25,518 nucleotides of DNA. Origin: a virus. Its lineage: Duplodnaviria; Heunggongvirae; Uroviricota; Caudoviricetes. Positions 3,183 to 23,001 of the stretch are shown piece by piece. Each line of letters begins with the position of its first letter. The first letter of the stretch is position 1. The notes beneath the pieces are model-generated. The model searched no databases. It saw nothing but the letters and a program-made list of their open reading frames with translations, and had not been told where the DNA came from. The stretch is taken from positions 1-25,518 of the IMG/VR virus record IMGVR_UViG_3300045988_091615, one strand, 5' to 3'. The position numbers were made by a program, and so were the translations under genes.

Positions 3183-3280
3183 TGATTAACATGAAAGAAT
3201 TACGGAGCTTGCTTATATCGTGTTATGTCAGTTTACTGGATACAGGGCAAGTGAATGCCCCTTTCCATGAATTAGATTAA
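3182..3280 (+). CDS. Micro-ORF (32 aa) translationally coupled to A; possible leader peptide or remnant at the cargo junction
   Basis: ATG 3182-3184 overlaps the A stop (TGATG). Translation MINMKELRSLLISCYVSLLDTGQVNAPFHELD, stop TAA 3278-3280, 11 nt before the cargo gene ATG. Below the ORF-track size cutoff; read by hand. Confidence 0.25.
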   Translation: MINMKELRSLLISCYVSLLDTGQVNAPFHELD

Positions 3281-3291
3281 AGGCTTGCAAA

Positions 3292-4623
3292 ATGAACAAT
3301 AACAGTAAGAAAACTTTGAGTAAGAAAAGAACCAAGAAAGCCAAAAAGAAGTCGCTTACCCCTGAACAAAAAGCATTGCAAGCAGAACAAGCAGCAAAAA
3401 AAGCGCAAATTATAGAGAATAGGCGCTCTATTACAGCTCATGCTATTAATCTTTTTCAGCAATATACAGCACTCCGTAAAAAAGGATTAGATAGTTCCAC
3501 TGCTACTTTGCAAGCTTATGCTGATTATGAAAAAGTACATGGACATAAATTCCTTAGTTCTGTCTCTATGTGGACAAAAATCAAAACTGAAGCAGGGATT
3601 CGGATCTATGATCTTGAGAGACAAGATAGCCGTAAATCGCTTAATCTTGCTAAGATTCCGACCCGTTTAGAGGCTAAGCGTAGTGTACTGACACAGAACC
3701 AAAAGAAAGTACATAACCAGAATGCAAATACATTACGCTTAATCGGTGGCAAAAAGCTACCTGTAACATCTATGGGGCTTATTGTATGCCCTGTCTGCGA
3801 GATACATATAAAAGATAGTGCTATAGAGTGGCATTTACGACACAACCACGTAGATCATGTAGATAACCCGTTTACTAACCCTATAGTAGCTCCTATTGAT
3901 ACCTTAGAAGAGACTGTAGAAATACGTGATCTACTAATTGGTGATAAAACACTTCCGATTAAATCTAGTACTATTAATATGGGGAGTTACAAGAAAGATA
4001 AACGTTATTTTAATAAGCAAGTTTATCAAACGGCATTGCTAACAATGACACAATCAGAAGCGTGGAAACTCGCGACTGATGAAGAATCTAGTATGACTTT
4101 TTTAAGCAATCAGTACATAAGTCCATTAACATCACCCGAACCCAATAATGAAATATCTCTTATCATGGATGGAACGGATATAGCCATTAATGAAAGTCTA
4201 ACTAATCCTTTCAAGGCCGCAAACGATACCTGTGCTACAGGACGAACAGTCGAGGTTACTCACAAAGTCCGTCATGCTGGAGATCAAGCTGATTTCAAAC
4301 GCCGTGTTTGGGATAACTTCAATGGCAGATGTGCTATTACTGGCTATCCATTGCCAGAGGGGATATTGGAAGCCGCACATATTGAAGCAATAACAGAATC
4401 AGCAAATAATAACACATCTAATGGCCTGTTACTTGAAGTAAGTTTACACCGAATGTTTGATAAAGGATTAATGGGGATTAATCCAGAGGACTTAACGGTT
4501 CATTTCTCTATTAATTGTATCCACAAAACTATGTTTGAGGGTAAAACTCTACAACCGCATCATGTAGAACTTGATGCTGGGAAGTTGATGACAAAATGGA
4601 AAAAGTTCCATGATAAGCGTTAA
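3292..4623 (+). CDS. Cargo protein with C-terminal HNH_2-type nuclease domain, internal C2H2-like zinc-finger motif and Lys-rich N-terminus (candidate defence effector)
   Basis: 443-aa ORF, ATG 3292 with AAGG 8 nt upstream, markedly AT-rich. C-terminus carries the HNH_2 signature GRCAITG...EAAHIEA...SNGLLLEVSLHRMFDKG. Mid-protein CPVCEIHIKDSAIEWHLRHNH resembles a C2H2 finger. N-terminal ~45 aa are highly basic (KKTLSKKRTKKAKKK...). Confidence 0.8.
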   Translation: MNNNSKKTLSKKRTKKAKKKSLTPEQKALQAEQAAKKAQIIENRRSITAHAINLFQQYTALRKKGLDSSTATLQAYADYEKVHGHKFLSSVSMWTKIKTEAGIRIYDLERQDSRKSLNLAKIPTRLEAKRSVLTQNQKKVHNQNANTLRLIGGKKLPVTSMGLIVCPVCEIHIKDSAIEWHLRHNHVDHVDNPFTNPIVAPIDTLEETVEIRDLLIGDKTLPIKSSTINMGSYKKDKRYFNKQVYQTALLTMTQSEAWKLATDEESSMTFLSNQYISPLTSPEPNNEISLIMDGTDIAINESLTNPFKAANDTCATGRTVEVTHKVRHAGDQADFKRRVWDNFNGRCAITGYPLPEGILEAAHIEAITESANNNTSNGLLLEVSLHRMFDKGLMGINPEDLTVHFSINCIHKTMFEGKTLQPHHVELDAGKLMTKWKKFHDKR

Positions 4624-4650
4624 CATGACTTCTTCTGGTGCAGAGAGGCG

Positions 4651-4679
4651 TTAGATTTAATTATGTATTATGATTTAAT
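4651..4679 (+). promoter_or_regulatory. Possible sigma70-like promoter for the second cargo gene
   Basis: TTAGAT (4651-4656), 17-nt spacer, TTTAAT (4674-4679) in the AT-rich 91-bp gap between the two cargo ORFs. Weak match, by eye only. Confidence 0.2.
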
Positions 4680-4714
4680 TTTGGGTGTGATTTGTTATAT
4701 GGGGAATAGATTAT

Positions 4715-5134
4715 ATGGTGACGCTTGATATGGTTTATTGGAAATTTGGTTATGCTTCGGAAGCAGCTCAATTACTGGAGACTGAGTTGATAAATGTTAT
4801 CACTGAGTATGATATGAGTCAGGGGAAAGATATACAGTCGCTGAAAAAACAGTTTTTAGAAATGGATAAATACACGCTGGGTAAATTGAATTACGCACTG
4901 AAGTCTAGGATGGTGGAGGATGCTGATACACTGGAGTATGTGTCAGATGCTCTTAAAGCCAGAAACTACTTGGCACATGATTTTTTTCGCGCTCATAATT
5001 TTGCCAAAGATACCCCAGCAGGACGGCAAAAAATGCTTGATGATTTACAAAAAACACACAACATTATTTTTGAGGCATACCGGAAAGTACTGCTAATTAG
5101 TGGCATCAAAATTCCACCTTTAGAAGATGATTAG
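4715..5134 (+). CDS. Small cargo protein (139 aa) with RNxxxH motif; possible HEPN-like RNase or partner/immunity protein
   Basis: ATG 4715 (alternative ATG at 4730), GGGGA 9 nt upstream, AT-rich, co-oriented with the HNH ORF. Contains KARNYLAHDFF, which fits the HEPN Rx4-6H (RNxxxH) signature. A short motif only. Confidence 0.65.
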   Translation: MVTLDMVYWKFGYASEAAQLLETELINVITEYDMSQGKDIQSLKKQFLEMDKYTLGKLNYALKSRMVEDADTLEYVSDALKARNYLAHDFFRAHNFAKDTPAGRQKMLDDLQKTHNIIFEAYRKVLLISGIKIPPLEDD

Positions 5135-5262
5135 CCGACGCCCGCAATAGTTGCATTATTCTGCATGGCTTTTAAGGGGCGGATCTACGTGACCACCGCC
5201 AGTACTGGTGCGTCTCCAGTGTGTTCATGCACCTGCATTAAAACCGACCCATGAAGCGGGCG

Positions 5263-5281
5263 GGCGAGGCGGGGAAAGCAC
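5263..5281. other. cos: cos site: 19-nt cohesive-end sequence GGCGAGGCGGGGAAAGCAC
   Basis: Exact match to the 19-nt P2 cohesive end as I remember it, at the expected position between the A-side cargo locus and the 3' end of Q. Flanked by an 11-bp inverted repeat (ACCACCGCCAG 5192-5202 / CTGGCGGTGGT 5288-5298) and a G+T-rich strand-biased stretch. Confidence 0.7.
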
Positions 5282-5420
5282 TGCGCGCTGGCGGTGGTGC
5301 TGATTTTATTTTTTCAGCGTCTGAGCGCGTCGTGATGGCGTTTAGATTGTGCGCCGGGGCGTTGGTGTGTCTGCGGGGTGTTTTGTGCGGTGGTGAGCGT
5401 GTGAGGGCGTGATGGCGGGT

Positions 5421-5444
5421 TGTAAAAAGCCGCCCGTAGGCGGC
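5421..5444 (-). terminator. Rho-independent terminator of the P-Q operon
   Basis: Minus-strand hairpin GCCGCC-TACG-GGCGGC (5429-5444) followed by TTTTTAC, immediately 3' of the Q stop. Confidence 0.6.
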
Positions 5445-5449
5445 GATGT

Positions 5450-6484
5450 TCAGCCGTTGTCAGTGTCCAGTGAGTAGTTTTTAAAGCGGATGACCTCCTG
5501 ACCGAGCCAGCCGTTTATCTCGCGGATCCTGTCCTGTAACGGGATAAGCTCATTGCGGACAAAGACCTTTGCCACTTTCTCAATATCACCCAGCGACCCG
5601 ACGTTCTCCGGCTTGCCGCCCATCAACTGAAAGGGGATGCGGTGCGCGTCCAGCAGGTCAGCGGCGCTGGCTTTTTTGATATTAAAAAAATCGTCCTTCG
5701 TTGCCACTTCACTGAGCGGGATAATTTTAATGCCGTCAGCTTTCCCCTGCGGGGCATAGAGAAACAGGTTTTTAAAGTTGTTGCGGCCTTTCGACTTCAC
5801 CATGTTTTCGCGGAGCATTTCGATATCGTTGCGATCCTGCACGGCATCGGTGACGTACATGATGTATCCGGCATGCGCGCCGTTTTCGTAATACTTGCGG
5901 CGGAACAGCGTGGCCGACTCATTCAGCCAGGCAGAGTTAAGGGCGCTGAGATATTCCGGCAGGCCGTACAGCTCCTGATTAATATCCGGCTCCAGCAGGT
6001 GAAACACGGAGCCGGGCGCGAAAGGTGTCGGCTCGTTGAAGGACGGCACCCACCAGTAAACATCCTCTTCCACACCACGGCGGGTATATTTTGCCGGTGA
6101 GGTTTCCAGTCTGATGACCTTACCGGTGGTGCTGTAACGCTTTTCCAGAAACGCATTACCGAACACCAGAAAATCCAGCACAAAGCGGCTGAAATCCTGC
6201 TGGGAAAGCCACGGATGCGGGATAAATGTCGAGGCCAGAATATTACGTTTGACGTAAATCGGTGAGCTGTGATGCACGGCAGCACGCAGGCTTTTTGCCA
6301 GACCGGTAAAGCTGACCGGTGGCTCATACCATCTGCCGTTACTGATGCATTCGACGTAATCCAGAATGTCACGGCGGTCGAGTACCGGCACCGGCTCACC
6401 AAAGGTGAATGCCTCCATTTTCGGGGCGCTGGTGGTCATTGTTTTTGCCGCAGGTTGCGGTGTTTTCCCTTTTTTCTTGCTCAT
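5450..6484 (-). CDS. Q: Portal protein, P2 gpQ family
   Basis: 344 aa, the same length I recall for P2 Q, and recognisable as P2 portal sequence. Its ATG overlaps the P stop by one base (ATGA). Confidence 0.9.
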   Translation of the reverse strand: MSKKKGKTPQPAAKTMTTSAPKMEAFTFGEPVPVLDRRDILDYVECISNGRWYEPPVSFTGLAKSLRAAVHHSSPIYVKRNILASTFIPHPWLSQQDFSRFVLDFLVFGNAFLEKRYSTTGKVIRLETSPAKYTRRGVEEDVYWWVPSFNEPTPFAPGSVFHLLEPDINQELYGLPEYLSALNSAWLNESATLFRRKYYENGAHAGYIMYVTDAVQDRNDIEMLRENMVKSKGRNNFKNLFLYAPQGKADGIKIIPLSEVATKDDFFNIKKASAADLLDAHRIPFQLMGGKPENVGSLGDIEKVAKVFVRNELIPLQDRIREINGWLGQEVIRFKNYSLDTDNG

Positions 6485-8256
6485 CAGTAAAACTCCAGAA
6501 TGGTGGATGTCAGCGGGGTGCTGATACCGGCGGTGAGTGGCTCATTTAACAGGGCGTGCATGGTCGCCCAGGCGAGGTCGGCATGGCTGGCTTCCTCGCT
6601 GCGGCTGGCCTCATAGGTGGCGCTGCGTCCGCTGCTGGTCATGGTCTTGCGGATAGCCATAAACGAGCTGGTGATGTCGGTGGCGCTGACGTCATATTCC
6701 AGACAGCCACGGCGAATAACGTCTTTTGCCTTGAGCACCATTGCGGTTTTCATTTCCGGCGTGTAGCGGATATCGCGCGCGGCGGGATAGAACGAGCGAA
6801 CGAGCTGGAACACGCCGACACCGAGGCCGGTGGCATCAATTCCGATGTATTCGACGTTGTATTTTTCGGTGAGTTTGCGGATGGATTCAGCCTGGGTGGC
6901 AAAGTCCATGCCTTTCCACTGGTGACGCTCAAGTATTCTGAATTTGCCACCGGCCACCACCGGCGGTGCCAGCACCACGCATCCGGCACTGTCGCCACGG
7001 TGTGACGGGTCGTAACCAATCCATACCGGACGTGAGCCGAACGGATTGGCGGCAAACGGCGCATAGTCTTCCCATTCTTCCAGCGTGTCGACCATGCAGC
7101 GTTGCAGATCCTCGAACGGGAACACCGACGCCTTGTCGTCAACAAATTCACACATGAACAGGTTTTTAAAATCGTCGGCGCTGTTTTCACGTTTGAGCTG
7201 CTCAATGTCGAACAGTGTGCAGCCACCTTTCAGGGCATCCTCAATGGTGACAATCTGCCGCCACTGGCCGTCCGCACAGAGAAGACCACCGGCAAGGGCG
7301 TTATGACTGACGTCGATTTCCACGCGTTCGGCGGCGCTGGCGCGTCCCCGGTTGAACAGTTCACCTGACCAGAACGGGTAGGCGTCGTGCGCCAGCGTGG
7401 ACGGGGTGGAGAAATAGGTCGAGCGCAGGTGACTCTGTGAGGCCATACCTGATGCTACCTTACGCAGTACCTGAAAATTCGGGATCCAGAAAATCTCGTC
7501 GACGTACAGGTCGCCGTTATGGCTCTGTGCGGTGTTGGAGTTGGTGCCGAGAAAAATCAGTTTTGCACCGTTATTGCCCAGGACAATCGGGTCACCGGTC
7601 AGGTCAACGTCAACCAGACGGGCAAAGGCGATGATGTATTCGCGGAACACATACGCCTGCGTTTTACTGGCCGACAGAAAAATCTGGTTATGGCCGGTTT
7701 TCAGGGCACGCAGCAGCGCCTCGCGGGAAAAATAAAACGTCGCGCCAATCTGGCGGGATTTCAGGATATCGCGGATGCGGTGCTCAAGCCCGGCGCGATA
7801 CCAGTGCAACTGATAGTCGAAAGACTGCTCAAAGAAAATCTGCTCCAGCTTTTCGATGGCCTCGTCACTGAAAAAATTCTTTTTCGGTTTGCGACGCCCG
7901 CCTTTGTTGCGGTTAGCGACGTTCGGATTAAGGTCTGCCTCGTTGCCGGTCTGACTGTAACGGTTTACCCGTGCCAGTCGTTCAATCTGGCGTCCCAGCA
8001 GGTCAATTTCCTTGAAGTCACCGCCGGTTTTCTGCGGTTTGATGATGAGCTGGGTCAGCCGCGCTTCCAGACTCATTTCGACACGGCTGATGGGGGCAAC
8101 GCTGTCCCAGCCGTCGCGCTGTTTCCAGCTCTGCACCGTCGGGCGTTTCATCTGCAACATGGCGGCAATCTGCGGCACGGAAAACCCCTGCCAGTACAGC
8201 AGCGCCGCCTGACGACGCGGGTCGTGTAAAAGAGTGGTGTCTGTGGTGATGGTCAT
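6484..8256 (-). CDS. P: Terminase large (ATPase) subunit, P2 gpP family
   Basis: Large minus-strand ORF. Likely start is the ATG ending at 8256 (MTITTDTTLL...), giving 590 aa; the ORF-track start at 8286 adds 10 residues. Position immediately upstream of Q and divergent from O as in P2. Confidence 0.9.
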   Translation of the reverse strand: MTITTDTTLLHDPRRQAALLYWQGFSVPQIAAMLQMKRPTVQSWKQRDGWDSVAPISRVEMSLEARLTQLIIKPQKTGGDFKEIDLLGRQIERLARVNRYSQTGNEADLNPNVANRNKGGRRKPKKNFFSDEAIEKLEQIFFEQSFDYQLHWYRAGLEHRIRDILKSRQIGATFYFSREALLRALKTGHNQIFLSASKTQAYVFREYIIAFARLVDVDLTGDPIVLGNNGAKLIFLGTNSNTAQSHNGDLYVDEIFWIPNFQVLRKVASGMASQSHLRSTYFSTPSTLAHDAYPFWSGELFNRGRASAAERVEIDVSHNALAGGLLCADGQWRQIVTIEDALKGGCTLFDIEQLKRENSADDFKNLFMCEFVDDKASVFPFEDLQRCMVDTLEEWEDYAPFAANPFGSRPVWIGYDPSHRGDSAGCVVLAPPVVAGGKFRILERHQWKGMDFATQAESIRKLTEKYNVEYIGIDATGLGVGVFQLVRSFYPAARDIRYTPEMKTAMVLKAKDVIRRGCLEYDVSATDITSSFMAIRKTMTSSGRSATYEASRSEEASHADLAWATMHALLNEPLTAGISTPLTSTILEFY

Positions 8257-14178: not shown

Positions 14179-14623
14179 GTTTAAGCGTTTTGAAGACCGG
14201 CTGACCGGACTGATTGAATCGCTGTCACCGTCAGGGCGTCGGCGACTGAGTGCCGAACTGGCGAAACGTCTGCGGCAGAGTCAGCAGCGTCGGGTGATGG
14301 CTCAGAAAGCCCCCGACGGCACACCCTACGCACCACGCCAGCAGCAGAGCGCCAGAAAAAAGACCGGTCGTGTTAAGCGAAAAATGTTTGCGAAACTTAT
14401 CACCAGTCGTTTTTTGCATATCCGCGCCAGCCCGGAACAGGCATCAATGGAATTTTACGGCGGGAAGTCGCCGAAAATCGCCAGTGTGCATCAGTTCGGT
14501 CTGTCGGAAGAAACCCGGAAAGACGGTAAGAAAATTGATTATCCGGCGCGTCCTCTGCTCGGCTTTACCGGTGAGGATGTGCAGATGATTGAAGAGATTA
14601 TCCTGGCTCACCTTGAGCGTTAG
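14171..14623 (+). CDS. S: Tail completion protein, P2 gpS family
   Basis: 150 aa; start overlaps the R stop; matches P2 S length and position. Confidence 0.85.
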   Translation: MNEFKRFEDRLTGLIESLSPSGRRRLSAELAKRLRQSQQRRVMAQKAPDGTPYAPRQQQSARKKTGRVKRKMFAKLITSRFLHIRASPEQASMEFYGGKSPKIASVHQFGLSEETRKDGKKIDYPARPLLGFTGEDVQMIEEIILAHLER

Positions 14624-14653
14624 TTTTATCCAGGCAGAGGCTGATGCGCAATT

Positions 14654-14688
14654 AAACATTGAGCGGCCATGCTGGTCGCTCAATGTTT
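14654..14688. terminator. Strong hairpin between convergent S and the S-V cargo gene (possible bidirectional terminator)
   Basis: Perfect 12-bp inverted repeat AAACATTGAGCG (14654-14665) / CGCTCAATGTTT (14677-14688) with an 11-nt loop, 31 nt after the S stop and 7 nt after the stop of the minus-strand cargo gene. T-tract weak on both strands. Confidence 0.5.
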
Positions 14689-14694
14689 AGAGGT

Positions 14695-15480
14695 TTATGA
14701 GTGATTTTTATTTGATGCTTTGTATTCTAAAACCTTCTTATTGGCGTAAAAGAATTTTGTATATGACAGGAATATAACCAGACCTGAAGTGAAATAGACG
14801 AGGGATAGTATTAATAATGCTTTTTTGTGACTGTTATTATCTTTAATCTCCTGGCTTAACCATTCGGAGTCCTCCTCGTTTAGCTGTAAGAGCTTATTGC
14901 AGGCGATCTCAGGAAGTGTGTCTTTTATAAATACGTTTCGTAGCCTCTTGCAATCGGCAAGGCTATAAGTTTTATTGAATTCAACTGTTTTATTGTTGAA
15001 GGATAAAAGAACTTTGTCACTATAAACATAGTACATCATATTTTTATATGGTATGCCTATGGCATCTCTTACTATAGCGGATTGTTTGTTGTGTATATAA
15101 CATGCGAGGAGAATGTAAAAAATACTGGCCAGAATTACAATTATTGTTTTAATTATGTGTGGTGGTTTTGTTATGTCACCCCAGATGCGAGTAAGGAAAA
15201 AATACGATGTTTTTAGTTTTCCATCAATCAGTCCCTGCTGTATCATTCTCACATTTTCAATGCCTGATACATTGATTCCGTTAATTATTTTAAATAGTTG
15301 AATGTCGCGCCACTCGCGGTCAAGTCTTTTTAATTTTTTGTCTGAATATCCAAAATTGAAATAATGTGCAATAAGCCTCATAAGGTTACTTTTACCAAAG
15401 CTAAAAAATGCTAATACTGCAAAGCTACAAAGGAAAAAAACGATTAGCCCCCACACATTAGTCACATTATAGCTGACCAT
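14695..15480 (-). CDS. Cargo: predicted three-helix membrane protein (261 aa), unknown function
   Basis: Minus-strand ORF with a strong RBS (AAGGAG 6 nt upstream of the ATG ending at 15480), very AT-rich. Three hydrophobic stretches (VWGLIVFFLCSFAVLAFFSF; IIKTIIVILASIFYILLACYI; ALLILSLVYFTSGLVIFLSY). Inserted in opposite orientation between S and V. Confidence 0.8.
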   Translation of the reverse strand: MVSYNVTNVWGLIVFFLCSFAVLAFFSFGKSNLMRLIAHYFNFGYSDKKLKRLDREWRDIQLFKIINGINVSGIENVRMIQQGLIDGKLKTSYFFLTRIWGDITKPPHIIKTIIVILASIFYILLACYIHNKQSAIVRDAIGIPYKNMMYYVYSDKVLLSFNNKTVEFNKTYSLADCKRLRNVFIKDTLPEIACNKLLQLNEEDSEWLSQEIKDNNSHKKALLILSLVYFTSGLVIFLSYTKFFYANKKVLEYKASNKNHS

Positions 15481-15563
15481 TACGCTCTCCTTGAATGTTG
15501 TCTGGTAGTTCTACAAATGAATCCAGATAGCATAACTTTTATATATTGTGCAATCTCACATGC

Positions 15564-16199
15564 ATGAACACTCTCGCAAATATTCAGGAACTCGCGCGCG
15601 CACTGCGCAACATGATTCGCACCGGCATTATCGTCGAAACCGACCTTAACGCCGGTCGCTGCCGTGTGCAGACCGGCGGCATGTGCACTGACTGGCTTCA
15701 GTGGCTGACCCATCGTGCCGGTCGTTCGCGCACATGGTGGGCACCTTCCGTGGGGGAGCAGGTGCTGATTCTGGCCGTGGGCGGTGAACTCGACACGGCG
15801 TTCGTTCTGCCGGGGATTTATTCCGGCGATAACCCCTCGCCGTCTGTGTCGGCGGATGCCCTGCATATCCGTTTCCCTGACGGGGCGGTGATTGAATATG
15901 AACCCGAAACCAGTGCACTCACGGTAAGCGGAATTAAAACGGCCAGCGTGACGGCTTCTGATTCTGTTACTGCCACGGTGCCGGTGGTCATGGTGAAAGC
16001 ATCAACCCGCGTCACCCTGGACACCCCGGAGGTGGTCTGCACCAACAGGCTGATTACCGGCACGCTGGAAGTGCAGAAGGGCGGGACGATGCGCGGCAAC
16101 ATTGAACACACCGGCGGTGAACTCTCATCAAACGGTAAGGTACTGCATACCCATAAACACCCCGGCGACAGCGGCGGCACAACCGGGAGTCCTTTATGA
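15564..16199 (+). CDS. V: Baseplate assembly/spike protein, P2 gpV family
   Basis: ATG 15564 gives 211 aa (MNTLANIQELARALRNMIRTG...); the track start at 15546 is a TTG. Stop overlaps the W start (ATGA). Confidence 0.88.
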   Translation: MNTLANIQELARALRNMIRTGIIVETDLNAGRCRVQTGGMCTDWLQWLTHRAGRSRTWWAPSVGEQVLILAVGGELDTAFVLPGIYSGDNPSPSVSADALHIRFPDGAVIEYEPETSALTVSGIKTASVTASDSVTATVPVVMVKASTRVTLDTPEVVCTNRLITGTLEVQKGGTMRGNIEHTGGELSSNGKVLHTHKHPGDSGGTTGSPL

Positions 16200-16543
16200 C
16201 AGCGCGTTATCTCGGAATGAATCGCAGTGATGGCCTGACTGTCACTGACCTTGAGCATATCAGCCAGAGTATCGGCGATATCCTGCGCACACCGGTCGGC
16301 TCACGGGTGATGCGTCGTGATTACGGCTCGTTGCTGGCATCAATGATTGACCAGCCGCAGACCCCGGCGCTTGAGTTGCAGATTAAGGTCGCCTGTTACA
16401 TGGCGGTGCTGAAATGGGAACCCCGCGTCACCCTGTCATCCGTCACCACTGAGCGCAGTTTTGACGGGCGAATGACGGTCACGTTAACCGGCCAGCACAA
16501 CGACACCGGCCAGCCACTTTCGTTAACCATCCCTGTGAGTTGA
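16196..16543 (+). CDS. W: Baseplate wedge protein, P2 gpW family
   Basis: 115 aa, coupled to V and followed by J, as in P2. Confidence 0.88.
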   Translation: MTARYLGMNRSDGLTVTDLEHISQSIGDILRTPVGSRVMRRDYGSLLASMIDQPQTPALELQIKVACYMAVLKWEPRVTLSSVTTERSFDGRMTVTLTGQHNDTGQPLSLTIPVS

Positions 16544-16547
16544 AACC

Positions 16548-17456
16548 ATGCCGATTATCGACCTGAACCAGCTACCCGCACCGGATGTGGTCGAGGAGCT
16601 GGACTTTGAAACCATTCTCGCTGAACGCAAGGCGACACTGATTTCCCTTTACCCGGAAGACCAGCAGGAGGCGGTCGCCCGTACCCTGACGCTGGAATCC
16701 GAGCCTCTCGTCAAACTGCTGGAGGAAAATGCTTATCGTGAGCTTATCTGGCGTCAGCGTGTGAATGAGGCTGCACGGGCGGTGATGCTGGCCTGTGCCG
16801 CCGGTAATGACCTTGATGTGATTGGTGCCAATTACAACACCACACGCCTGATTATCACCCCGGCAGATGATTCGACCCTCCCGCCGACACCGGCCGTGAT
16901 GGAATCTGATACTGATTATCGTCTGCGTATTCAGCAGGCGTTTGAAGGTTTAAGCGTCGCCGGGTCGGTGGGGGCCTATCAGTATCATGGTCGCAGTGCC
17001 GACGGGCGTGTCGCGGATATTTCTGTCACCAGTCTGTCTCCGGCCTGCGTCACCATCTCTGTGCTGTCACGTGAAAATAACGGTGTGGCATCCGAAGACC
17101 TGCTGGCCGTGGTGCGTAACGCCCTTAATGGCGAGGACGTCAGGCCGGTGGCCGACCGCGTGACCGTGCAGTCTGCCGCCATTGTTGAATACCAGATAAA
17201 CGCCACGCTTTACCTTTACCCTGGTCCCGAAAGCGAACCCATCCGCGCTGCTGCCGTGAAAAAACTGGAAGCGTACATCACGGCGCAGCACCGGCTGGGG
17301 CGCGACATCCGTCTGTCTGCCATTTATGCCGCTTTGCATGTGGAAGGCGTGCAGCGTGTCGAGCTGGCCGCACCACTGGCCGACATTGTGCTCAACAGTA
17401 CGCAGGCGTCTTTCTGTACCGAATACCGCGTCGTGACCGGAGGCTCGGATGAGTGA
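16548..17456 (+). CDS. J: Baseplate protein, P2 gpJ family
   Basis: 302 aa, matching P2 J length and position. Confidence 0.9.
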   Translation: MPIIDLNQLPAPDVVEELDFETILAERKATLISLYPEDQQEAVARTLTLESEPLVKLLEENAYRELIWRQRVNEAARAVMLACAAGNDLDVIGANYNTTRLIITPADDSTLPPTPAVMESDTDYRLRIQQAFEGLSVAGSVGAYQYHGRSADGRVADISVTSLSPACVTISVLSRENNGVASEDLLAVVRNALNGEDVRPVADRVTVQSAAIVEYQINATLYLYPGPESEPIRAAAVKKLEAYITAQHRLGRDIRLSAIYAALHVEGVQRVELAAPLADIVLNSTQASFCTEYRVVTGGSDE

Positions 17457-17976
17457 GCGCCTGCTGCCGACCGGCTCATCACCGCTTGAAGTCGCCGCCG
17501 CAAAAGCCTGTGCGGAAATTGAAAAAACGCCGGTCAGTATTCGTGAACTGTGGAACCCGGACACCTGCCCGGGAAATCTGCTGCCGTGGCTGGCGTGGGC
17601 GTTTTCGGTCGACAGGTGGGATGAAAAGTGGCCGGAAGCGACAAAACGCGCCGTTATCCGCGATGCCTATTTCATCCACTGTCATAAGGGCACGATAGGT
17701 GCAATCCGGCGTGTGGTGGAGCCGCTCGGCTATCTCATCAACGTGACGGAGTGGTGGGAAAACAGTGACCCGCCAGGCACCTTCCGGCTTGATATTGGTG
17801 TACTGGAAAGCGGCATCACGGAGGCAATGTATCAGGAAATGGAACGGCTGATTGCCGATGCCAAACCTGCAAGCCGCCACCTTATTGGCCTGAACATTAC
17901 CCGGGACATTCCCGGCTATCTGTTCGCCGGTGGTGTGGCTTACGACGGCGATGTAATTACGGTTTACCCCGGATAA
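17449..17976 (+). CDS. I: Baseplate protein, P2 gpI family
   Basis: 175 aa; start overlaps the J stop; in the position of P2 I. Confidence 0.88.
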   Translation: MSERLLPTGSSPLEVAAAKACAEIEKTPVSIRELWNPDTCPGNLLPWLAWAFSVDRWDEKWPEATKRAVIRDAYFIHCHKGTIGAIRRVVEPLGYLINVTEWWENSDPPGTFRLDIGVLESGITEAMYQEMERLIADAKPASRHLIGLNITRDIPGYLFAGGVAYDGDVITVYPG

Positions 17977-17986
17977 GTGAGGAATA

Positions 17987-19996
17987 ATGAGCACGAAATT
18001 TAAAACCGTTATCACCACTGCCGGTGCAGCAAAGCTGGCAGCGGCAACCGCGCCGGGAGGGCGGAAGGTCAACATTACCACGATGGCCGTCGGGGATGGC
18101 GGTGGTAAATTGCCTGTCCCGGATGCCGGACAGACCGGGCTTATCCACGAAGTCTGGCGACATGCGCTGAACAAAATCAGCCAGGACAAACGAAACAGTA
18201 ATTATATTATCGCAGAGCTGGTTATTCCGCCGGAGGTGGGCGGTTTCTGGATGCGTGAGCTTGGCCTGTACGATGATGCTGGAACGTTAATTGCCGTGGC
18301 GAACATGGCCGAAAGTTATAAGCCAGCTCTTGCCGAAGGCTCAGGGCGTTCGCAGACCTGTCGCATGGTCATCATCGTCAGCAGTGTGGCCTCAGTGGAG
18401 CTGACCATTGACACCACAACGGTGATGGCGACGCAGGATTACGTTGATGACAAAATTGCAGAACATGAACAGTCACGACGTCACCCGGACGCCTCGCTGA
18501 CCGCAAAAGGTTTTACTCAGTTAAGCAGTGCGACCAACAGCACGTCTGAAACACTGGCCGCAACGCCGAAAGCGGTAAAGGCCGCGTATGACCTGGCTAA
18601 CGGGAAATATACCGCACAGGACGCCACCACAGCGCGAAAAGGCCTTGTCCAGCTCAGTAGTGCCACCAACAGCACGTCTGAAACGCTCGCCGCAACACCA
18701 AAAGCCGTTAAGACGGTAATGGATGAAACGAACAAAAAAGCGCCATTAAACAGCCCTGCACTGACCGGAACGCCAACGACGCCAACTGCGCGACAGGGAA
18801 CGAATAATACTCAGATCGCAAACACGGCTTTCGTTATGGCCGCGATTGCCGCCCTTGTAGACTCGTCGCCTGACGCACTGAATACGCTGAACGAGCTGGC
18901 GGCGGCGCTGGGCAATGACCCGAATTTTGCTACCACCATGACTAATGCGCTTGCGGGTAAGCAACCGAAAGATGCCACTTTGACGGCGCTGGCGGGGCTT
19001 GCTACTGCGGCAGACAGGTTTCCGTATTTTACGGGGAATGATGTTGCCAGCCTGGCGACCCTGACAAAAGTCGGGCGGGATATTCTGGCTAAATCGACCG
19101 TTGCCGCCGTTATCGAATATCTCGGTTTACAGGAAACGGTAAACCGAGCCGGGAACGCCGTGCAAAAAAATGGCGATACCTTGTCCGGTGGACTTACTTT
19201 TGAAAACGACTCAATCCTTGCCTGGATTCGAAATACTGACTGGGCGAAGATTGGATTTAAAAATGATGCCGATGGTGACACTGATTCATACATGTGGTTT
19301 GAAACGGGGGATAACGGCAATGAATATTTCAAATGGAGAAGCCGCCAGAGTACCACAACAAAAGACCTGATGACGTTGAAATGGGATGCACTAAATATTC
19401 TTGTTAATGCCGTCATTAATGGCTGTTTTGGAGTTGGTACGACGAATGCACTAGGTGGTAGCTCAATTGTTCTTGGTGATAATGATACCGGATTTAAACA
19501 GAATGGAGACGGTATTCTTGATGTTTATGCTAACAGTCAGCGAGTATTCCGTTTTCAGAATGGAGTGGCTATTGCTTTTAAAAATATTCAGGCAGGGGAT
19601 AGTAAAAAGTTCTCGCTATCCAGCTCTAACACATCCACGAAGAATATTACCTTTAATTTATGGGGTGCTTCCACCCGTCCAGTGGTTGCAGAGTTAGGCG
19701 ATGAGGCCGGATGGCATTTCTATAGCCAGCGAAATACAGATAACTCGGTAATATTTGCTGTTAACGGTCAGATGCAACCCAGCAACTGGGGGAATTTTGA
19801 TTCCCGCTATGTGAAAGATGTTCGCCTGGGTACGCGAGTTGTTCAATTGATGGCGCGAGGTGGTCGTTATGAAAAAGCCGGACACACGATTACCGGATTA
19901 AGAATCATTGGTGAAGTGGATGGCGATGATGAAGCCATCTTCAGGCCGATACAAAAATACATCAATGGCACATGGTATAACGTTGCGCAGGTGTAA
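17987..19996 (+). CDS. H: Tail fibre protein, P2 gpH family, with AT-rich C-terminal receptor-binding region
   Basis: 669 aa. N-terminal part is GC-rich P2-like; it contains tandem phage-tail-fibre repeats (QLSSATNSTSETLAATPKAVK twice). From about 19150 onward the composition drops to ~40% G+C, suggesting an exchanged distal module. Confidence 0.9.
   Translation: MSTKFKTVITTAGAAKLAAATAPGGRKVNITTMAVGDGGGKLPVPDAGQTGLIHEVWRHALNKISQDKRNSNYIIAELVIPPEVGGFWMRELGLYDDAGTLIAVANMAESYKPALAEGSGRSQTCRMVIIVSSVASVELTIDTTTVMATQDYVDDKIAEHEQSRRHPDASLTAKGFTQLSSATNSTSETLAATPKAVKAAYDLANGKYTAQDATTARKGLVQLSSATNSTSETLAATPKAVKTVMDETNKKAPLNSPALTGTPTTPTARQGTNNTQIANTAFVMAAIAALVDSSPDALNTLNELAAALGNDPNFATTMTNALAGKQPKDATLTALAGLATAADRFPYFTGNDVASLATLTKVGRDILAKSTVAAVIEYLGLQETVNRAGNAVQKNGDTLSGGLTFENDSILAWIRNTDWAKIGFKNDADGDTDSYMWFETGDNGNEYFKWRSRQSTTTKDLMTLKWDALNILVNAVINGCFGVGTTNALGGSSIVLGDNDTGFKQNGDGILDVYANSQRVFRFQNGVAIAFKNIQAGDSKKFSLSSSNTSTKNITFNLWGASTRPVVAELGDEAGWHFYSQRNTDNSVIFAVNGQMQPSNWGNFDSRYVKDVRLGTRVVQLMARGGRYEKAGHTITGLRIIGEVDGDDEAIFRPIQKYINGTWYNVAQV
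18518..18712 (+). repeat. Tandem in-frame 63-nt tail-fibre repeat units (period 132 nt) inside H
   Basis: Unit 18518-18580 and unit 18650-18712 are ~80% identical at nucleotide level and encode the same 21-aa motif. Consistent with the phage tail-fibre repeat family (Pfam Phage_fiber_2, as I recall). Confidence 0.8.
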
Positions 19997-19999
19997 GTT

Positions 20000-20527
20000 A
20001 TGCAGCATTTAAAGAACATTAAGTCAGGTAATCCAAAAACAAAAGAGCAATATCAGCTAACAAAGAATTTTGATGTTATCTGGTTATGGTCCGAAGACGG
20101 AAAAAACTGGTATGAGGAAGTGAAGAACTTTCAGCCAGACACAATAAAGATTGTTTACGATGAAAATAATATTATTGTCGCTATCACCAGAGATGCTTCA
20201 ACGCTTAATCCTGAAGGTTTTAGCGTTGTTGAGGTTCCTGATATTACCTCCAACCGACGTGCTGACGACTCAGGTAAATGGATGTTTAAGGATGGTGCTG
20301 TGGTTAAACGGATTTATACGGCAGATGAACAGCAACAACAGGCGGAATTACAGAAGGCAGCTTTGCTTTCCGAAGCTGAATCCGTAATTTTGCCGCTGGA
20401 GCGCGCTGTCAGGCTGAATATGGCAACAGATGAGGAACGCAGCCGACTGGAAGCATGGGAACGCTACAGCGTTCTGGTCAGTCGTGTGGATCCTGCAAAT
20501 CCTGAATGGCCGGAAATGCCACAATAA
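20000..20527 (+). CDS. G: Tail fibre assembly chaperone, P2 gpG / Tfa family
   Basis: 175 aa, ATG 4 nt after the H stop, AT-rich like the H C-terminus. Typical Tfa position and size. Confidence 0.85.
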
Positions 20528-20588
20528 GCTGTATAAACTCTGGTGTGAGCTCACATATCTATAACACAGAGTAACCCCTAATCTGACA

Positions 20589-20612
20589 GTCCGCTCTGTG
20601 CCAAGAGCGGAC
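20589..20612. other. Stable hairpin downstream of G (9-bp stem, 6-nt loop); not a canonical intrinsic terminator
   Basis: GTCCGCTCT (20589-20597) / AGAGCGGAC (20604-20612). No U-tract follows on either strand. Confidence 0.4.
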
Positions 20613-20717
20613 ATTGATAACATCAAGGCTCTCTGGTCAGAGGGGCTCAGGTCATTTACAGCATACAAAGAAAAAATTGAAATATTTTTCAAATAAACAC
20701 ATTGCAGGGCTTAGGCC

Positions 20718-21488
20718 TTACTCTTTAGCTCGTTTGGTCATCTCATTTGCTAACTGTGTAGACCAATAATGTTGACTCTTTGCTTCTAATATGAAAAGTA
20801 GCGCTCTCACACATTGTAGCTGAGCATGCACATAAGCATGAATATTACCAACTGAAGTAGGAACTAAGTGGGTTTCAGGTGTGTAGTAGTGGTAGATGCT
20901 CGTTTGTGAAGGATGAACATATTCGCTAAGTATGTCATAAGTCAGTTCAAAATCACTTTCCATCTGATTAGTCTGCTTCATCTCATCTTTATAGAGTTCG
21001 CGTAAAGCAGTCATCACATGCATACTGACAGCAAGTAGGTTTTCAAAACGATATTTAGCCTCCTCAGTAAACATGTAGTCGTTCGGGTCAAATACTCCTT
21101 TCTGAATCTTTTCTTGCTCTGACTTTTTAAATCGAGAACTATTCGTAAAGTTCAATATAACTTCGATAGCGTTATCTACACTTGCGTGGCCATTTTGGGT
21201 AGTCAAAATTTTCTCTACTTTCTTGTTTAAGAGTCGTGAGAAGGCATGAGTTTCAATCATTCCTCGGCTAACAATACAAGCGCTTTGGTATCGTTCGTTT
21301 TCGAGGAGGAGAAGCGCATCATCGAAGATGTCTATCTGCCTGTTCATAAGTAAATTGGCATAATTAACGAGATACAGTCCGCGGTCAGGGTTATGTGTTT
21401 TTTCGACAATTACACCATTAGTCTTGCTCAGCGCAGCTCTGGCGGCTTTTGCCTCATTCAGTCTCTGTTCTATAAGTTCTTTATACAT
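20718..21488 (-). CDS. Cargo: hypothetical soluble protein (256 aa), unknown function, at the P2 Z/fun position
   Basis: Minus-strand ORF, AAGGA upstream of the ATG ending at 21488, AT-rich, opposite orientation to the flanking G and FI. No domain recognised. Contains an Rx5H stretch (SRGMIETH), which is too loose to call HEPN. Confidence 0.8.
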   Translation of the reverse strand: MYKELIEQRLNEAKAARAALSKTNGVIVEKTHNPDRGLYLVNYANLLMNRQIDIFDDALLLLENERYQSACIVSRGMIETHAFSRLLNKKVEKILTTQNGHASVDNAIEVILNFTNSSRFKKSEQEKIQKGVFDPNDYMFTEEAKYRFENLLAVSMHVMTALRELYKDEMKQTNQMESDFELTYDILSEYVHPSQTSIYHYYTPETHLVPTSVGNIHAYVHAQLQCVRALLFILEAKSQHYWSTQLANEMTKRAKE

Positions 21489-21687
21489 GCTTTGTTTCCT
21501 TACAGGAGGATGTGTATCAACGAATAATCATTCCGCCTTTTGTCAGCTTGACTGTAAGGTATCATGCTGAAGTTAGCCATACAAAGCTCTGCCCATTATC
21601 AGTTTACCCAAAGCAGACTGTCAGATTTGATAGCGTTTGGGCTATGTAAATTGTCAGTCGGAAAATGAGTGAGTACAAATCAGGACA

Positions 21688-21716
21688 GGCGGGCGAATTG
21701 CCCGCCTTTTCTTTAT
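21688..21716 (+). terminator. Rho-independent terminator on the plus strand upstream of FI
   Basis: GGCGGGC (21688-21694) - GAATT - GCCCGCC (21700-21706) followed by TTTTCTTTAT. Canonical GC-rich stem plus U-tract on the plus strand only. Confidence 0.65.
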
Positions 21717-21810
21717 CTGTTGTTTCATCCACTGACCAGCCAGGTCAAATAGCGTCTCATGCACTGCCCAACAGAAAATAGTTGCACCCATTAACCACGG
21801 AGTTAAACGG

Positions 21811-23001
21811 ATGAGTGACTATCATCACGGCGTGCAGGTGCTGGAGATTAACGACGGCACCCGCGTCATTTCCACCGTATCCACTGCCGTTGTCGGCATG
21901 GTCTGTACGGCTAGCGATGCGGATGCGGAAACCTTCCCCCTCAATAAACCTGTGCTGATTACCAATGTGCAGAGCGCAATTGCAAAGGCCGGTAAAAAAG
22001 GCACGCTGGCGGCATCGTTGCAGGCCATCGCCGACCAGTCAAAACCGGTCACCGTTGTCGTGCGTGTGGAAGACGGCACCGGTGACGACGAGGAAACGAA
22101 ACTCGCGCAGACCGTTTCCAATATCATCGGCACCACCGACGAAAACGGTCAGTACACCGGACTGAAAGCCCTGCTGGCGGCAGAGTCGGTAACCGGTGTT
22201 AAACCGCGTATTCTCGGCGTGCCGGGACTGGACACCAAAGAGGTGGCTGTTGCACTGGCATCAGTCTGTCAGAAGCTGCGCGCTTTCGGGTATATCAGCG
22301 CATGGGGCTGTAAGACTATTTCCGAGGTGAAAGCCTACCGCCAGAATTTCAGCCAGCGTGAGCTGATGGTCATCTGGCCGGATTTCCTCGCATGGGATAC
22401 GGTCACCAGTACCACCGCCACCGCGTATGCCACCGCCCGTGCGCTGGGTCTGCGCGCTAAAATCGACCAGGAGCAGGGCTGGCATAAAACGCTGTCCAAT
22501 GTCGGGGTGAACGGTGTTACCGGCATCAGCGCATCCGTCTTCTGGGATTTGCAGGAGTCCGGCACCGATGCTGACCTGCTTAACGAGTCAGGCGTCACTA
22601 CGCTGATTCGCCGCGACGGTTTCCGCTTCTGGGGTAACCGTACCTGCTCCGATGACCCGCTGTTCCTCTTTGAAAACTACACCCGCACCGCGCAGGTGCT
22701 GGCCGACACGATGGCTGAGGCGCACATGTGGGCGGTGGACAAGCCCATCACTGCAACGCTGATTCGCGACATCGTTGACGGCATCAATGCCAAATTCCGT
22801 GAGCTGAAAACAAACGGCTATATCGTGGATGCGACCTGCTGGTTCAGCGAAGAATCCAACGATGCGGAAACCCTCAAGGCCGGAAAACTGTATATCGACT
22901 ATGACTATACCCCGGTGCCTCCTCTCGAAAACCTGACCCTGCGCCAGCGTATTACTGATAAATATCTGGCAAATCTGGTCACCTCGGTTAACAGCAATTA
23001 A
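21811..23001 (+). CDS. FI: Contractile tail sheath protein, P2 gpFI family
   Basis: 396 aa, matching P2 FI length; followed by the tail tube gene. Confidence 0.92.
   Translation: MSDYHHGVQVLEINDGTRVISTVSTAVVGMVCTASDADAETFPLNKPVLITNVQSAIAKAGKKGTLAASLQAIADQSKPVTVVVRVEDGTGDDEETKLAQTVSNIIGTTDENGQYTGLKALLAAESVTGVKPRILGVPGLDTKEVAVALASVCQKLRAFGYISAWGCKTISEVKAYRQNFSQRELMVIWPDFLAWDTVTSTTATAYATARALGLRAKIDQEQGWHKTLSNVGVNGVTGISASVFWDLQESGTDADLLNESGVTTLIRRDGFRFWGNRTCSDDPLFLFENYTRTAQVLADTMAEAHMWAVDKPITATLIRDIVDGINAKFRELKTNGYIVDATCWFSEESNDAETLKAGKLYIDYDYTPVPPLENLTLRQRITDKYLANLVTSVNSN

Follow-up and report, generated by a model that had tools for sequence, protein, structure and literature searches.

A G+C step in the tail fibre gene of a P2-type prophage as the probable scar of a travelling tip–chaperone cassette

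Tail fibre gene H of this P2-type prophage is, in our reading of the sequence comparisons, a chimera of at least three modules. Its distal tip, together with the adjoining chaperone gene G, would be a travelling Sv-U host-range cassette, and the step in G+C content inside H would be the scar of its acquisition (probability roughly 90%). The tip–chaperone cassette of P2 is already known and ordinary, a textbook case of tail-fibre mosaicism described in 1992, when Haggard-Ljungquist, Halling, and Calendar reportedly published the same conclusion, exchange of the fibre tip, for P2 itself. The window, meaning the whole 25.5-kb stretch of DNA that was analyzed, covers only part of the prophage; its DNA is 97–98% identical to that of phage P2. 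The features are as follows.

17987–19996, + strand: gene H, tail fibre protein, 669 aa (open reading frame; P2 annotation)
17987–18481, + strand: H aa 1–165, predicted lineage-specific baseplate-attachment domain, G+C 0.547 (Pfam PF12571)
18482–19109, + strand: H aa 166–375, G+C-rich shaft with two Phage_fiber_2 repeats (PF03406, two stretches)
19110–19135, + strand: relic Gin/Cin-type crossover site, TTATCGAATATC-TC-GGTTTACAGGAA (gix/cix alignment)
19136–19423, + strand: H aa ~384–479, conserved proximal tip, the putative 5′ recombination arm, G+C ~0.44 (nucleotide identity to P1 and D108)
19164: maximum-likelihood G+C change point within H–G (log-likelihood gain 18.7)
19424–19789, + strand: H aa 480–601, variable tip core (unmatched in P1 and D108)
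19790–19996, + strand: H aa 602–669, conserved C-terminal end, the putative 3′ recombination arm, contiguous with G (nucleotide match to P1 and D108)
20000–20527, + strand: gene G, tail fibre assembly protein (Tfa), 175 aa (open reading frame; Pfam Caudo_TAP, PF02413)
20621–21608: low-G+C cargo locus in place of P2 fun(Z) (break in P2 homology)
20718–21488, − strand: cargo open reading frame, 256 aa, DUF5677, G+C 0.394 (Pfam PF18928, E = 1e-9)

H lies directly after the baseplate genes V-W-J-I and before G, which starts 4 nt past the H stop codon. The window is collinear with P2 (AF063097 / NC_001895) at 97.6% nucleotide identity over 14990–20620, spanning V, W, J, I, H, and G. The two share the gene order I-H-G and an identical relic crossover site, H and G have the lengths of P2 gpH and gpG (669 and 175 aa), and the H–G pair is 98.0% identical across 2541 nt; H aa 166–669 and G aa 1–80 are both 100% identical at the protein level. 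The window differs from P2 in the 3′ third of G, where nucleotide identity drops to 82–94%, and downstream of G, where P2 carries fun(Z) and the window the DUF5677 open reading frame.

The G+C step within H is confirmed. The original prediction had set it by eye at ~19150, and the computed optimum falls at 19164, with a gain that none of 2000 shuffles reached (base shuffles peaked at 12.0, codon shuffles at 12.6). G+C is 0.553 in H from 17987 to 19149, 0.439 in H from 19150 to 19996, and 0.436 in G, against 0.567 in FI and 0.523 in the whole window. The drop had been described as a level ~40% through G; the fall itself stands, but to a level of about 0.44, and composition varies within G, with 0.358 in codons 1–80, the N-domain, and 0.505 in codons 81–175, the C-domain. 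The low composition does persist through G as described, and it also runs on: a two-change-point fit places the block at 19165–21825, past the end of G, and the part beyond G, to about 21825, is a separate cargo locus. GC3 is 0.58–0.68 in J, I, FI, and the 5′ part of H, and 0.36–0.44 in 3′ H and G. Because synonymous positions show the drop too, amino-acid composition alone does not explain it.

Upstream of the step, the protein has two kinds of relatives. PF12571, the N-terminal tail-collar fibre domain, matches H aa 1–151 (E = 2e-58, 197 bits against a cut-off of 23), which identifies the anchor domain of a P2-type (Peduovirus) gpH. Homologues of this anchor (aa ~26–160) are confined to P2-like and other contractile-tail phages, with 86–100% identity across the Peduovirus relatives and 67% in the Xuanwuvirus P88_4B11, and protein comparison detected nothing similar to aa 1–165 in P1, D108/Mu, lambda, or vB_YpM_41. 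The shaft module (about aa 166–376), however, recurs in lambda Stf and in the constant region of P1 S, so that the earlier description of the 5′ two-thirds of H as GC-rich and P2-like is half right in its second term, holding for the anchor but not for aa 166–376. Lambda stf (orf-401/orf-314) matches the shaft at 79% nucleotide identity over 18628–19125 (76–78% in protein), and P1 Sc at 70% over 18737–19129 (58% in protein). Lambda Tfa (orf-194) also resembles G in its C-domain (45% identity to G aa 81–175), but lambda, a phage with a non-contractile tail, resembles the window in neither anchor nor tip. Internal repeats of the shaft at 18505–18580 and 18637–18712 coincide with the points at which L-413C (18592) and fiAA91-ss (18714) part from the window.

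The tip and G have relatives of another kind, as had been foreseen for the C-terminus of H and G as against the N-terminus. Both are 82–100% identical in protein to their counterparts in P1, Mu/D108, and two invertase-carrying phages, vB_YpM_41 (a Yersinia phage, OR545054) and P88_4B11 (LR595891), and this discordance with the P2-like anchor supports the proposed exchange of a receptor-binding tip with its cognate chaperone. H aa 377–480 are 100% identical to vB_YpM_41, 88% to P1, and 89% to D108, and fully identical (100%) in P88_4B11; the corresponding values are 99%, 91%, and 82% for H aa 602–669, and 94%, 98%, and 96% for G aa 1–80. The converse case is fiAA91-ss, in which the anchor is 100% identical and identity is 69% in H aa 377–480, 44% in H aa 602–669 (82–99% in all other carriers), and 65% in G aa 1–80.

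G carries the domain and occupies the position of a Tfa protein (PF02413, E = 1.5e-36, 125.8 bits against a cut-off of 22.1), and matches chain B of PDB 5YVQ (Mu U), a solved fibre–chaperone complex, over its full length (residues 1–175, E = 2e-105). By homology with Mu U, it would bind the fibre tip, its N-domain engaging the fibre end, and would be needed for trimerisation of the fibre, driven by its C-domain; the modular action of Tfa proteins is summarised in PMC9608196. P7 U′ is 93.7% identical to G. Similarity in G is a patchwork at a scale below 100 bp, which makes “one cassette, one transfer” a simplification.

The tip is likewise a mosaic, so that its transfer is upheld but not its exchange as a single unit. 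Only 19103–19423 and 19790–20527 are common with Mu and P1. The proximal stretch, 19136–19423, is 87–88% identical in DNA to P1 and D108, and one 738-nt match (19790–20527) spans the end of H and all of G (88% in P1, 85% in D108). Pfam Gp34_trimer matches H aa 419–481, and chain A of 5YVQ (Mu S) matches aa 375–517. The intervening core, 19424–19789, is matched in P1 and D108 neither in DNA nor in protein, its aa 481–601 are unrelated to the cores of Mu or P1, and P2_AC1 and L-413C diverge from the window within it. Short motifs of the core recur in T2 gp37 (H aa ~479–536, 67%) and in the T4 gp34 and S16 gp37 structures. The core, aa 480–601, is the probable determinant of receptor specificity.

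Shaft and tip meet at a relic crossover site (H aa 375–383). It matches D108 gixR at 23 of 26 positions and gixL at 22 of 26, its right half-site and central TC are identical to Mu gix, and it is one base off the H-side site of the invertase-bearing relatives; in a base-by-base alignment with D108 gix and P1 cixR, its central dinucleotide (19122–19123) falls on the crossover point annotated in P1 cixR. Homology from the 5′ side ends here (lambda at 19125, P1 Sc at 19129) and homology from the 3′ side begins here (D108 Sv at 19103, the distal part of P1 Sv at 19128), so four boundaries converge within 19103–19129, and the tip and chaperone are homologous to Sv-U from the crossover site onward. 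The G+C optimum lies about 40 nt 3′ of the site's centre, and because the likelihood is nearly flat over 19110–19194 (about 80 nt), step and site coincide within resolution rather than exactly. The site also lies in coding sequence (VIEYLGLQE), and protein constraint alone could account for its conservation. P1 cixR was considered as the direct counterpart of the tip junction, which holds only in part: alignment of the P2 shaft with P1 Sc runs as far as cixR, but that of the P2 tip with P1 Sv starts at an internal pseudo-site about 610 nt further in (L002 3466), where the P1 G+C dip also begins. A passage of PMC8986868 credits Sandmeier with recombination-site-like sequences at the ends of tail-fibre segments.

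Intact invertible versions of the arrangement are present in the relatives. vB_YpM_41 and P88_4B11 resemble the window in the tip (95–100% in protein) and G (87–95%), at about 91% nucleotide identity over one unbroken stretch that begins in the shaft and runs to the stop codon of G, with the left-hand crossover site at the homologous position. They differ in carrying the tip and G, an inverted G′–tip′ cassette, and a DNA invertase, all bracketed by an inverted pair of sites, and in the anchor, which is undetectable in vB_YpM_41 and 67% identical in P88_4B11. In the G segment of Mu/D108 (S-U / S′-U′, with Gin) and the C segment of P1 (S-U / S′-U′, with Cin), the proximal tip, the C-terminus of the fibre, and the chaperone are 85–88% identical in DNA to the window, the junction lies at the gix/cix crossover site, and the same G+C dip is seen; unlike these phages, the window is without an invertase, a partner site, and an alternative cassette. 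With up to 6 mismatches allowed, neither strand of the 25.5-kb window shows a second or inverted 26-bp site. In tblastn searches of the window, D108 Gin and the vB_YpM_41 invertase had no hit below E = 1, and the only matches of D108 U′ and S′ were on the + strand, to G and the final part of H. Since the window has a single, degenerate site and neither invertase nor alternative cassette, the cassette in it is, as in P2, frozen. A working inversion system that includes 19110–19135 and makes host range phase-variable is therefore rejected and scarcely credible, despite the near-identity of the site to that of the invertase-bearing relatives: partner, invertase, and S′/U′ cassette are all absent from the window (part of the prophage), FI follows G after only the 1.3-kb cargo locus, and the P2 arrangement is identical.

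Two further explanations concern the low composition itself. Under one, the block 19165–21825, comprising the H tip, G, and the DUF5677 gene, arrived as a single foreign insert, as the two-change-point fit and a G+C that stays below 0.55 between G and the cargo gene would suggest. The comparisons make this very unlikely and we reject it, since tip plus G and the cargo gene occur in different combinations across P2 and E. coli genomes. P2 has the tip and G at 97–100% identity with fun(Z) rather than the DUF5677 gene, and its homology stops at 20620 and returns at 21609; in many E. coli genomes the same tip and G (97%) are accompanied by other cargo, in strain E47 G and the DUF5677 gene occur together with another tip, and homology to P1, D108, vB_YpM_41, and P88_4B11 stops at the G stop codon. 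The position between G and FI is variable (fun(Z) in P2, orf44 in Wphi, other open reading frames in P2_AC1, fiAA91-ss, and L-413C), with four different genes in four relatives. The DUF5677 gene of the window, low in G+C and set ahead of the pF promoter, thus occupies the variable cargo locus of P2-like phages, which is typically home to a non-essential gene; P2 fun(Z), its counterpart at this position, blocks T5. The product of the DUF5677 gene is labelled “DUF5677 domain-containing protein” by RefSeq in 3 E. coli genomes; a PADLOC scan of this open reading frame and of the one at the orf30 position gave no matches, and passages of PMC9122126 and of the 2026 bioRxiv preprint on the P2 defence hotspot contain no mention of the G–FI locus, tail fibres, or DUF5677. 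Under the other explanation, nothing was transferred, and the step reflects protein constraints on a beta-rich tip (rich in Asn, Lys, Ser, Thr, and Ile) or a local mutational bias of the P2 lineage. Fibre tips are compositionally unusual proteins, and the tip and the N-domain of G are lower in GC1 and GC2 as well, but GC3 drops too, from about 0.6 to about 0.4, codon-shuffled controls always stay below the observed signal, DNA 85–91% identical with the same G+C profile occurs in unrelated phage lineages, and the relatives of anchor and tip are discordant. We consider this highly improbable.

In the chimeric reading that we prefer, the lineage-specific N-terminal domain would dock the fibre onto a P2-type baseplate, the G+C-rich shaft would be the module also present in lambda Stf and in the constant region of P1 S, and the lower-G+C tip, presumably co-transcribed with G, would form with it one arm (Sv-U) of a Gin/Cin/Hin-type invertible cassette. 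Such cassettes would circulate among Mu-like, P1-like, and some P2-like phages and keep their own composition wherever they are located; the G+C step would be an acquisition scar because the cassette carries its composition with it and is frozen at a lone site. The direction and timing of the transfer we infer. The arms at 19136–19423 and from 19790 to the end of G flank the core at 19424–19789, and homologous recombination in them could swap receptor specificity while the fibre C-terminus stays matched to its chaperone.

The finding carries little weight as a discovery; its practical gain is a precise module map of a prophage fibre, with the anchor at aa 1–165, the shaft at aa 166–375, the junction at aa 375–383, conserved arms, and the core at aa 480–601. 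P2/P4 particles have been retargeted through exchange of the C-terminal portion of H along with the chaperone that fits it (PMC9942202, PMC9594776), and the best engineered P2–P1 fusion joins P2 H aa 370 to P1 S aa 446 with the matching chaperone co-supplied (PMC9942202), a point 6–7 residues upstream of the natural junction. A composition step judged by eye can place such a junction within about 50 nt. The relic site in P2-type H might, as an unlikely further possibility suggested by its sequence, still serve as a substrate for invertases supplied in trans (Gin of a co-resident Mu, Cin of P1, or the enzyme of an invertase-bearing prophage), with a true gix or cix elsewhere in the cell as partner. 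Exchange of tip and chaperone would then be site-specific, instead of proceeding by homologous or illegitimate recombination.

Phage P2 matches all 2541 nt of the tail fibre gene H and its assembly chaperone gene G (17987-20527) at 98.0% identity (megablast) and 88% of the window's first 25 kb at 97.3%. The annotated P2 record has the same V-W-J-I-H-G order and the same H and G lengths as the window, and the region is a P2-type prophage. The features relevant to the fibre cassette are:

17987-19996, H, tail fibre gene, 669 aa
20000-20527, G, tail fibre assembly chaperone (Tfa) gene, 175 aa
19110-19135, junction site TTATCGAATATC-TC-GGTTTACAGGAA, matching D108 gixR at 23/26 and gixL at 22/26 positions

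In a 300-nt sliding window, G+C is 0.55-0.62 over 15600-19200, falls to 0.41-0.47 over 3' H and 0.37-0.38 at the H/G boundary, reaches 0.49 over the latter half of G, is then 0.38-0.44 to ~21700 and is back at 0.57-0.61 in FI. By segment, H 17987-19149 averages 0.553, H 19150-19996 averages 0.439 and G averages 0.436. The fall within H, originally predicted at about 19150, was borne out: the optimal single change point in H-G is 19164 (19110-19194 being nearly equal), some 15 nt away, and its log-likelihood gain of 18.7 exceeds those of all 2000 base shuffles (maximum 12.0) and all 2000 codon shuffles (maximum 12.6). GC3 drops from 0.58-0.68 in J, I, FI and 5' H to 0.36-0.44 in 3' H and G, so the step does not reflect amino-acid content alone. 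Low G+C does continue through G as predicted, but not uniformly (0.358 in codons 1-80 vs 0.505 in codons 81-175), and the block extends beyond the gene to ~21825. The predicted end, 20527, is nevertheless where the fibre cassette itself ends on its 3' side.

Nearest relatives differ between the parts of H. In tblastn searches with H aa 1-392, matches to the first ~160 residues came solely from contractile-tail phages, both P2-like and others, among them Ralstonia, Pseudomonas, Vibrio and Clostridioides phages at 32-55%; aa 1-151 form a tail-collar fibre N-terminal domain (Pfam). H aa 393-669 instead matched P1 S inside the invertible segment, D108/Mu S and a 49-kb Yersinia phage, along with short motifs in T2-type gp37 and in Aeromonas T4-like fibres. 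G is 93.7% identical to P7 U' and 88% to Mu U.

Protein identity of H and G segments to four phages
fiAA91-ss: H 1-165, 100%; H 377-480, 69%; H 602-669, 44%; G 1-80, 65%
vB_YpM_41: H 1-165, none; H 377-480, 100%; H 602-669, 99%; G 1-80, 94%
P1: H 1-165, none; H 377-480, 88%; H 602-669, 91%; G 1-80, 98%
D108: H 1-165, none; H 377-480, 89%; H 602-669, 82%; G 1-80, 96%

Four independent DNA homologies meet within the same ~25 nt: those to lambda stf (79%) and the constant part of P1 S, Sc (70%), stop at 19125 and 19129, and those to the variable part (Sv) of D108 (88%) and distal Sv of P1 (87%) begin at 19103 and 19128. When the junction site is aligned with P1 cixR, the annotated crossover point falls on its central dinucleotide, 19122-19123. 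At the motif encoded by the site, (E)YLGLQE, H stops aligning with P1 Sc along the shaft (P1 aa 453-458, cixR-encoded) and starts aligning along the tip with D108 S (aa 167, at gixL) and with an internal motif repeat in P1 Sv (aa 654). The tip boundary is thus a relic of an invertase crossover site. Sandmeier and colleagues (1992, 1994) discussed sequences resembling invertase sites at the borders of tail-fibre segments, according to PMC8986868; the work is also cited in PMC12315714.

Yersinia phage vB_YpM_41 (OR545054) and Xuanwuvirus P88_4B11 (LR595891) carry the same shaft, tip and G at ~91% nucleotide identity, in one unbroken match that starts in the shaft and ends with the stop codon of G. 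After G, both have a second chaperone gene and a fibre-tip fragment, each inverted, and a DNA invertase gene; their site at the homologous position, TTATCGAATACC..., differs from the window's by one base, and its inverted partner adjoins the invertase gene. The window and P2 have one crossover site each. Searches of the window by tblastn gave no invertase match with Gin or the vB_YpM_41 invertase, and U' and S' had no matches other than G and the end of H. The H tip and G are therefore one arm of an invertible host-range cassette, present here as a fixed copy. The pair works in the same way as Sv-U in Mu and P1, but it lacks three of the four defining features of invertible segments and is therefore not classed as one. 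Segments at 4464-7593 of the vB_YpM_41 record and 4037-6740 of the P88_4B11 record appear to be intact invertible host-range segments, with inverted gix-like sites, a neighbouring DNA invertase and almost the same tip as P2; apart from the invertase, every vB_YpM_41 gene is labelled 'hypothetical', and the record's taxonomy ends at 'Viruses'.

Homologous DNA in D108 and P1 has the same G+C profile as the window: ~0.41-0.46 in the tip, a dip to 0.36-0.40 where fibre and chaperone genes meet and ~0.50-0.52 over the latter half of the chaperone gene. Proximal Sv of P1 is at 0.53-0.55, the fall starting at an internal pseudo-site near position 3466 of its record. The low composition thus moves with the cassette; as to its origin, the motifs shared with AT-rich T-even-type fibres are only suggestive.

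The remainder of the low-G+C block, past G, is separate from the cassette. P2 homology ends at 20620 and restarts at 21609, and in place of P2 fun(Z), which blocks T5, the window has a DUF5677 ORF, without a PADLOC match; Wphi, P2_AC1, fiAA91-ss and L-413C each have another gene there. Part of 19100-21900 is matched in 2300 of 5426 complete E. coli genomes, the full combination in three; others share tip and G but differ in cargo, or share G and cargo but differ in the tip. The DUF5677 gene is a candidate for a defence or conversion function encoded by the prophage. ORFs of this and two further low-G+C islands are:

20718-21488, minus strand, DUF5677 ORF, 256 aa, G+C 0.394, at the fun(Z) position between G and FI (locus 20621-21608)
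3292-4623, plus strand, ORF, 443 aa, HNH_2 (Pfam E=8e-11; PADLOC HNH PDLC04132 E=2e-11)
4715-5134, plus strand, ORF, 139 aa, weak PD-Lambda-3_B match (E=0.002)
14695-15480, minus strand, ORF, G+C 0.338, without Pfam or PADLOC match

The island at 3000-5100 (0.37-0.43) follows replication gene A, where P2 has its old/tin cargo locus. The third, 14600-15585, lies between S and V, where P2 has orf30; since P2 homology starts no earlier than 14990, its ORF differs from orf30 in the 3' part. A strong terminator-like hairpin at 21687-21707 on the plus strand has a 9-bp stem with seven G-C pairs and a T-rich tail. It is located after the cargo gene and before the region homologous to the pF activator site of P2, and could end V-operon read-through.

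H aa 375-517 match Mu tail fibre protein S and full-length G matches Mu assembly protein U (E=2e-105), both chains of one solved complex, 5YVQ. PMC9608196, summarising North et al. 2019, describes Mu Tfa as modular, with a variable N-terminal domain that binds the distal fibre and a conserved C-terminal helical domain that drives trimerisation, and as remaining on the mature fibre. This fits G being two-part in both composition and conservation; matches limited to aa 128-175 (Shigella and Klebsiella phages) or aa 1-80 (Phapecoctavirus-type phages) point the same way. By homology with Mu, it also accounts for tip and chaperone moving together. Engineering results are in line: in the best P2-P1 chimera, aa 370 of P2 H is fused to aa 446 of P1 S, and P1 U or U' is provided (PMC9942202). 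The fusion point is 6-7 residues upstream of the natural junction. Horizontal exchange of tip and chaperone, as originally proposed for the confirmed composition switch, is thus supported by the discordant relatives, with refinements, and does not depart from the picture already known.

Both genes are mosaic. The 5' two-thirds of H, predicted to be GC-rich and P2-like, is G+C-rich, but aa 166-376 (0.562) are not P2-specific: identity is 76-78% to lambda Stf, 58% to P1 Sc, 95% to P88_4B11 and 83% to vB_YpM_41, and just 44-55% to the Peduoviruses L-413C and fiAA91-ss. The latter two lose similarity at 18592 and 18714, respectively, at two Phage_fiber_2 repeats (18505-18580 and 18637-18712, cross-matching at ~80% nt), which are therefore likely recombination hot spots. 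G is identical to P2 until ~20281 and 82-94% identical beyond, and 25 of the 53 window-P2 differences across H-G lie in its last 290 nt (20237-20527). Because identity to each relative shifts bin by bin at the 80-nt scale, G is a fine-grained recombination patchwork (<100 bp). Tip DNA shared with Mu and P1 is confined to 19103-19423 and 19790-20527; P2_AC1 homology stops at 19411 and restarts at 19790, where L-413C also restarts. The variable part of the tip is the core 19424-19789 (aa 480-601), which we infer sets receptor specificity, with the conserved flanking arms allowing it to be exchanged by homologous recombination.
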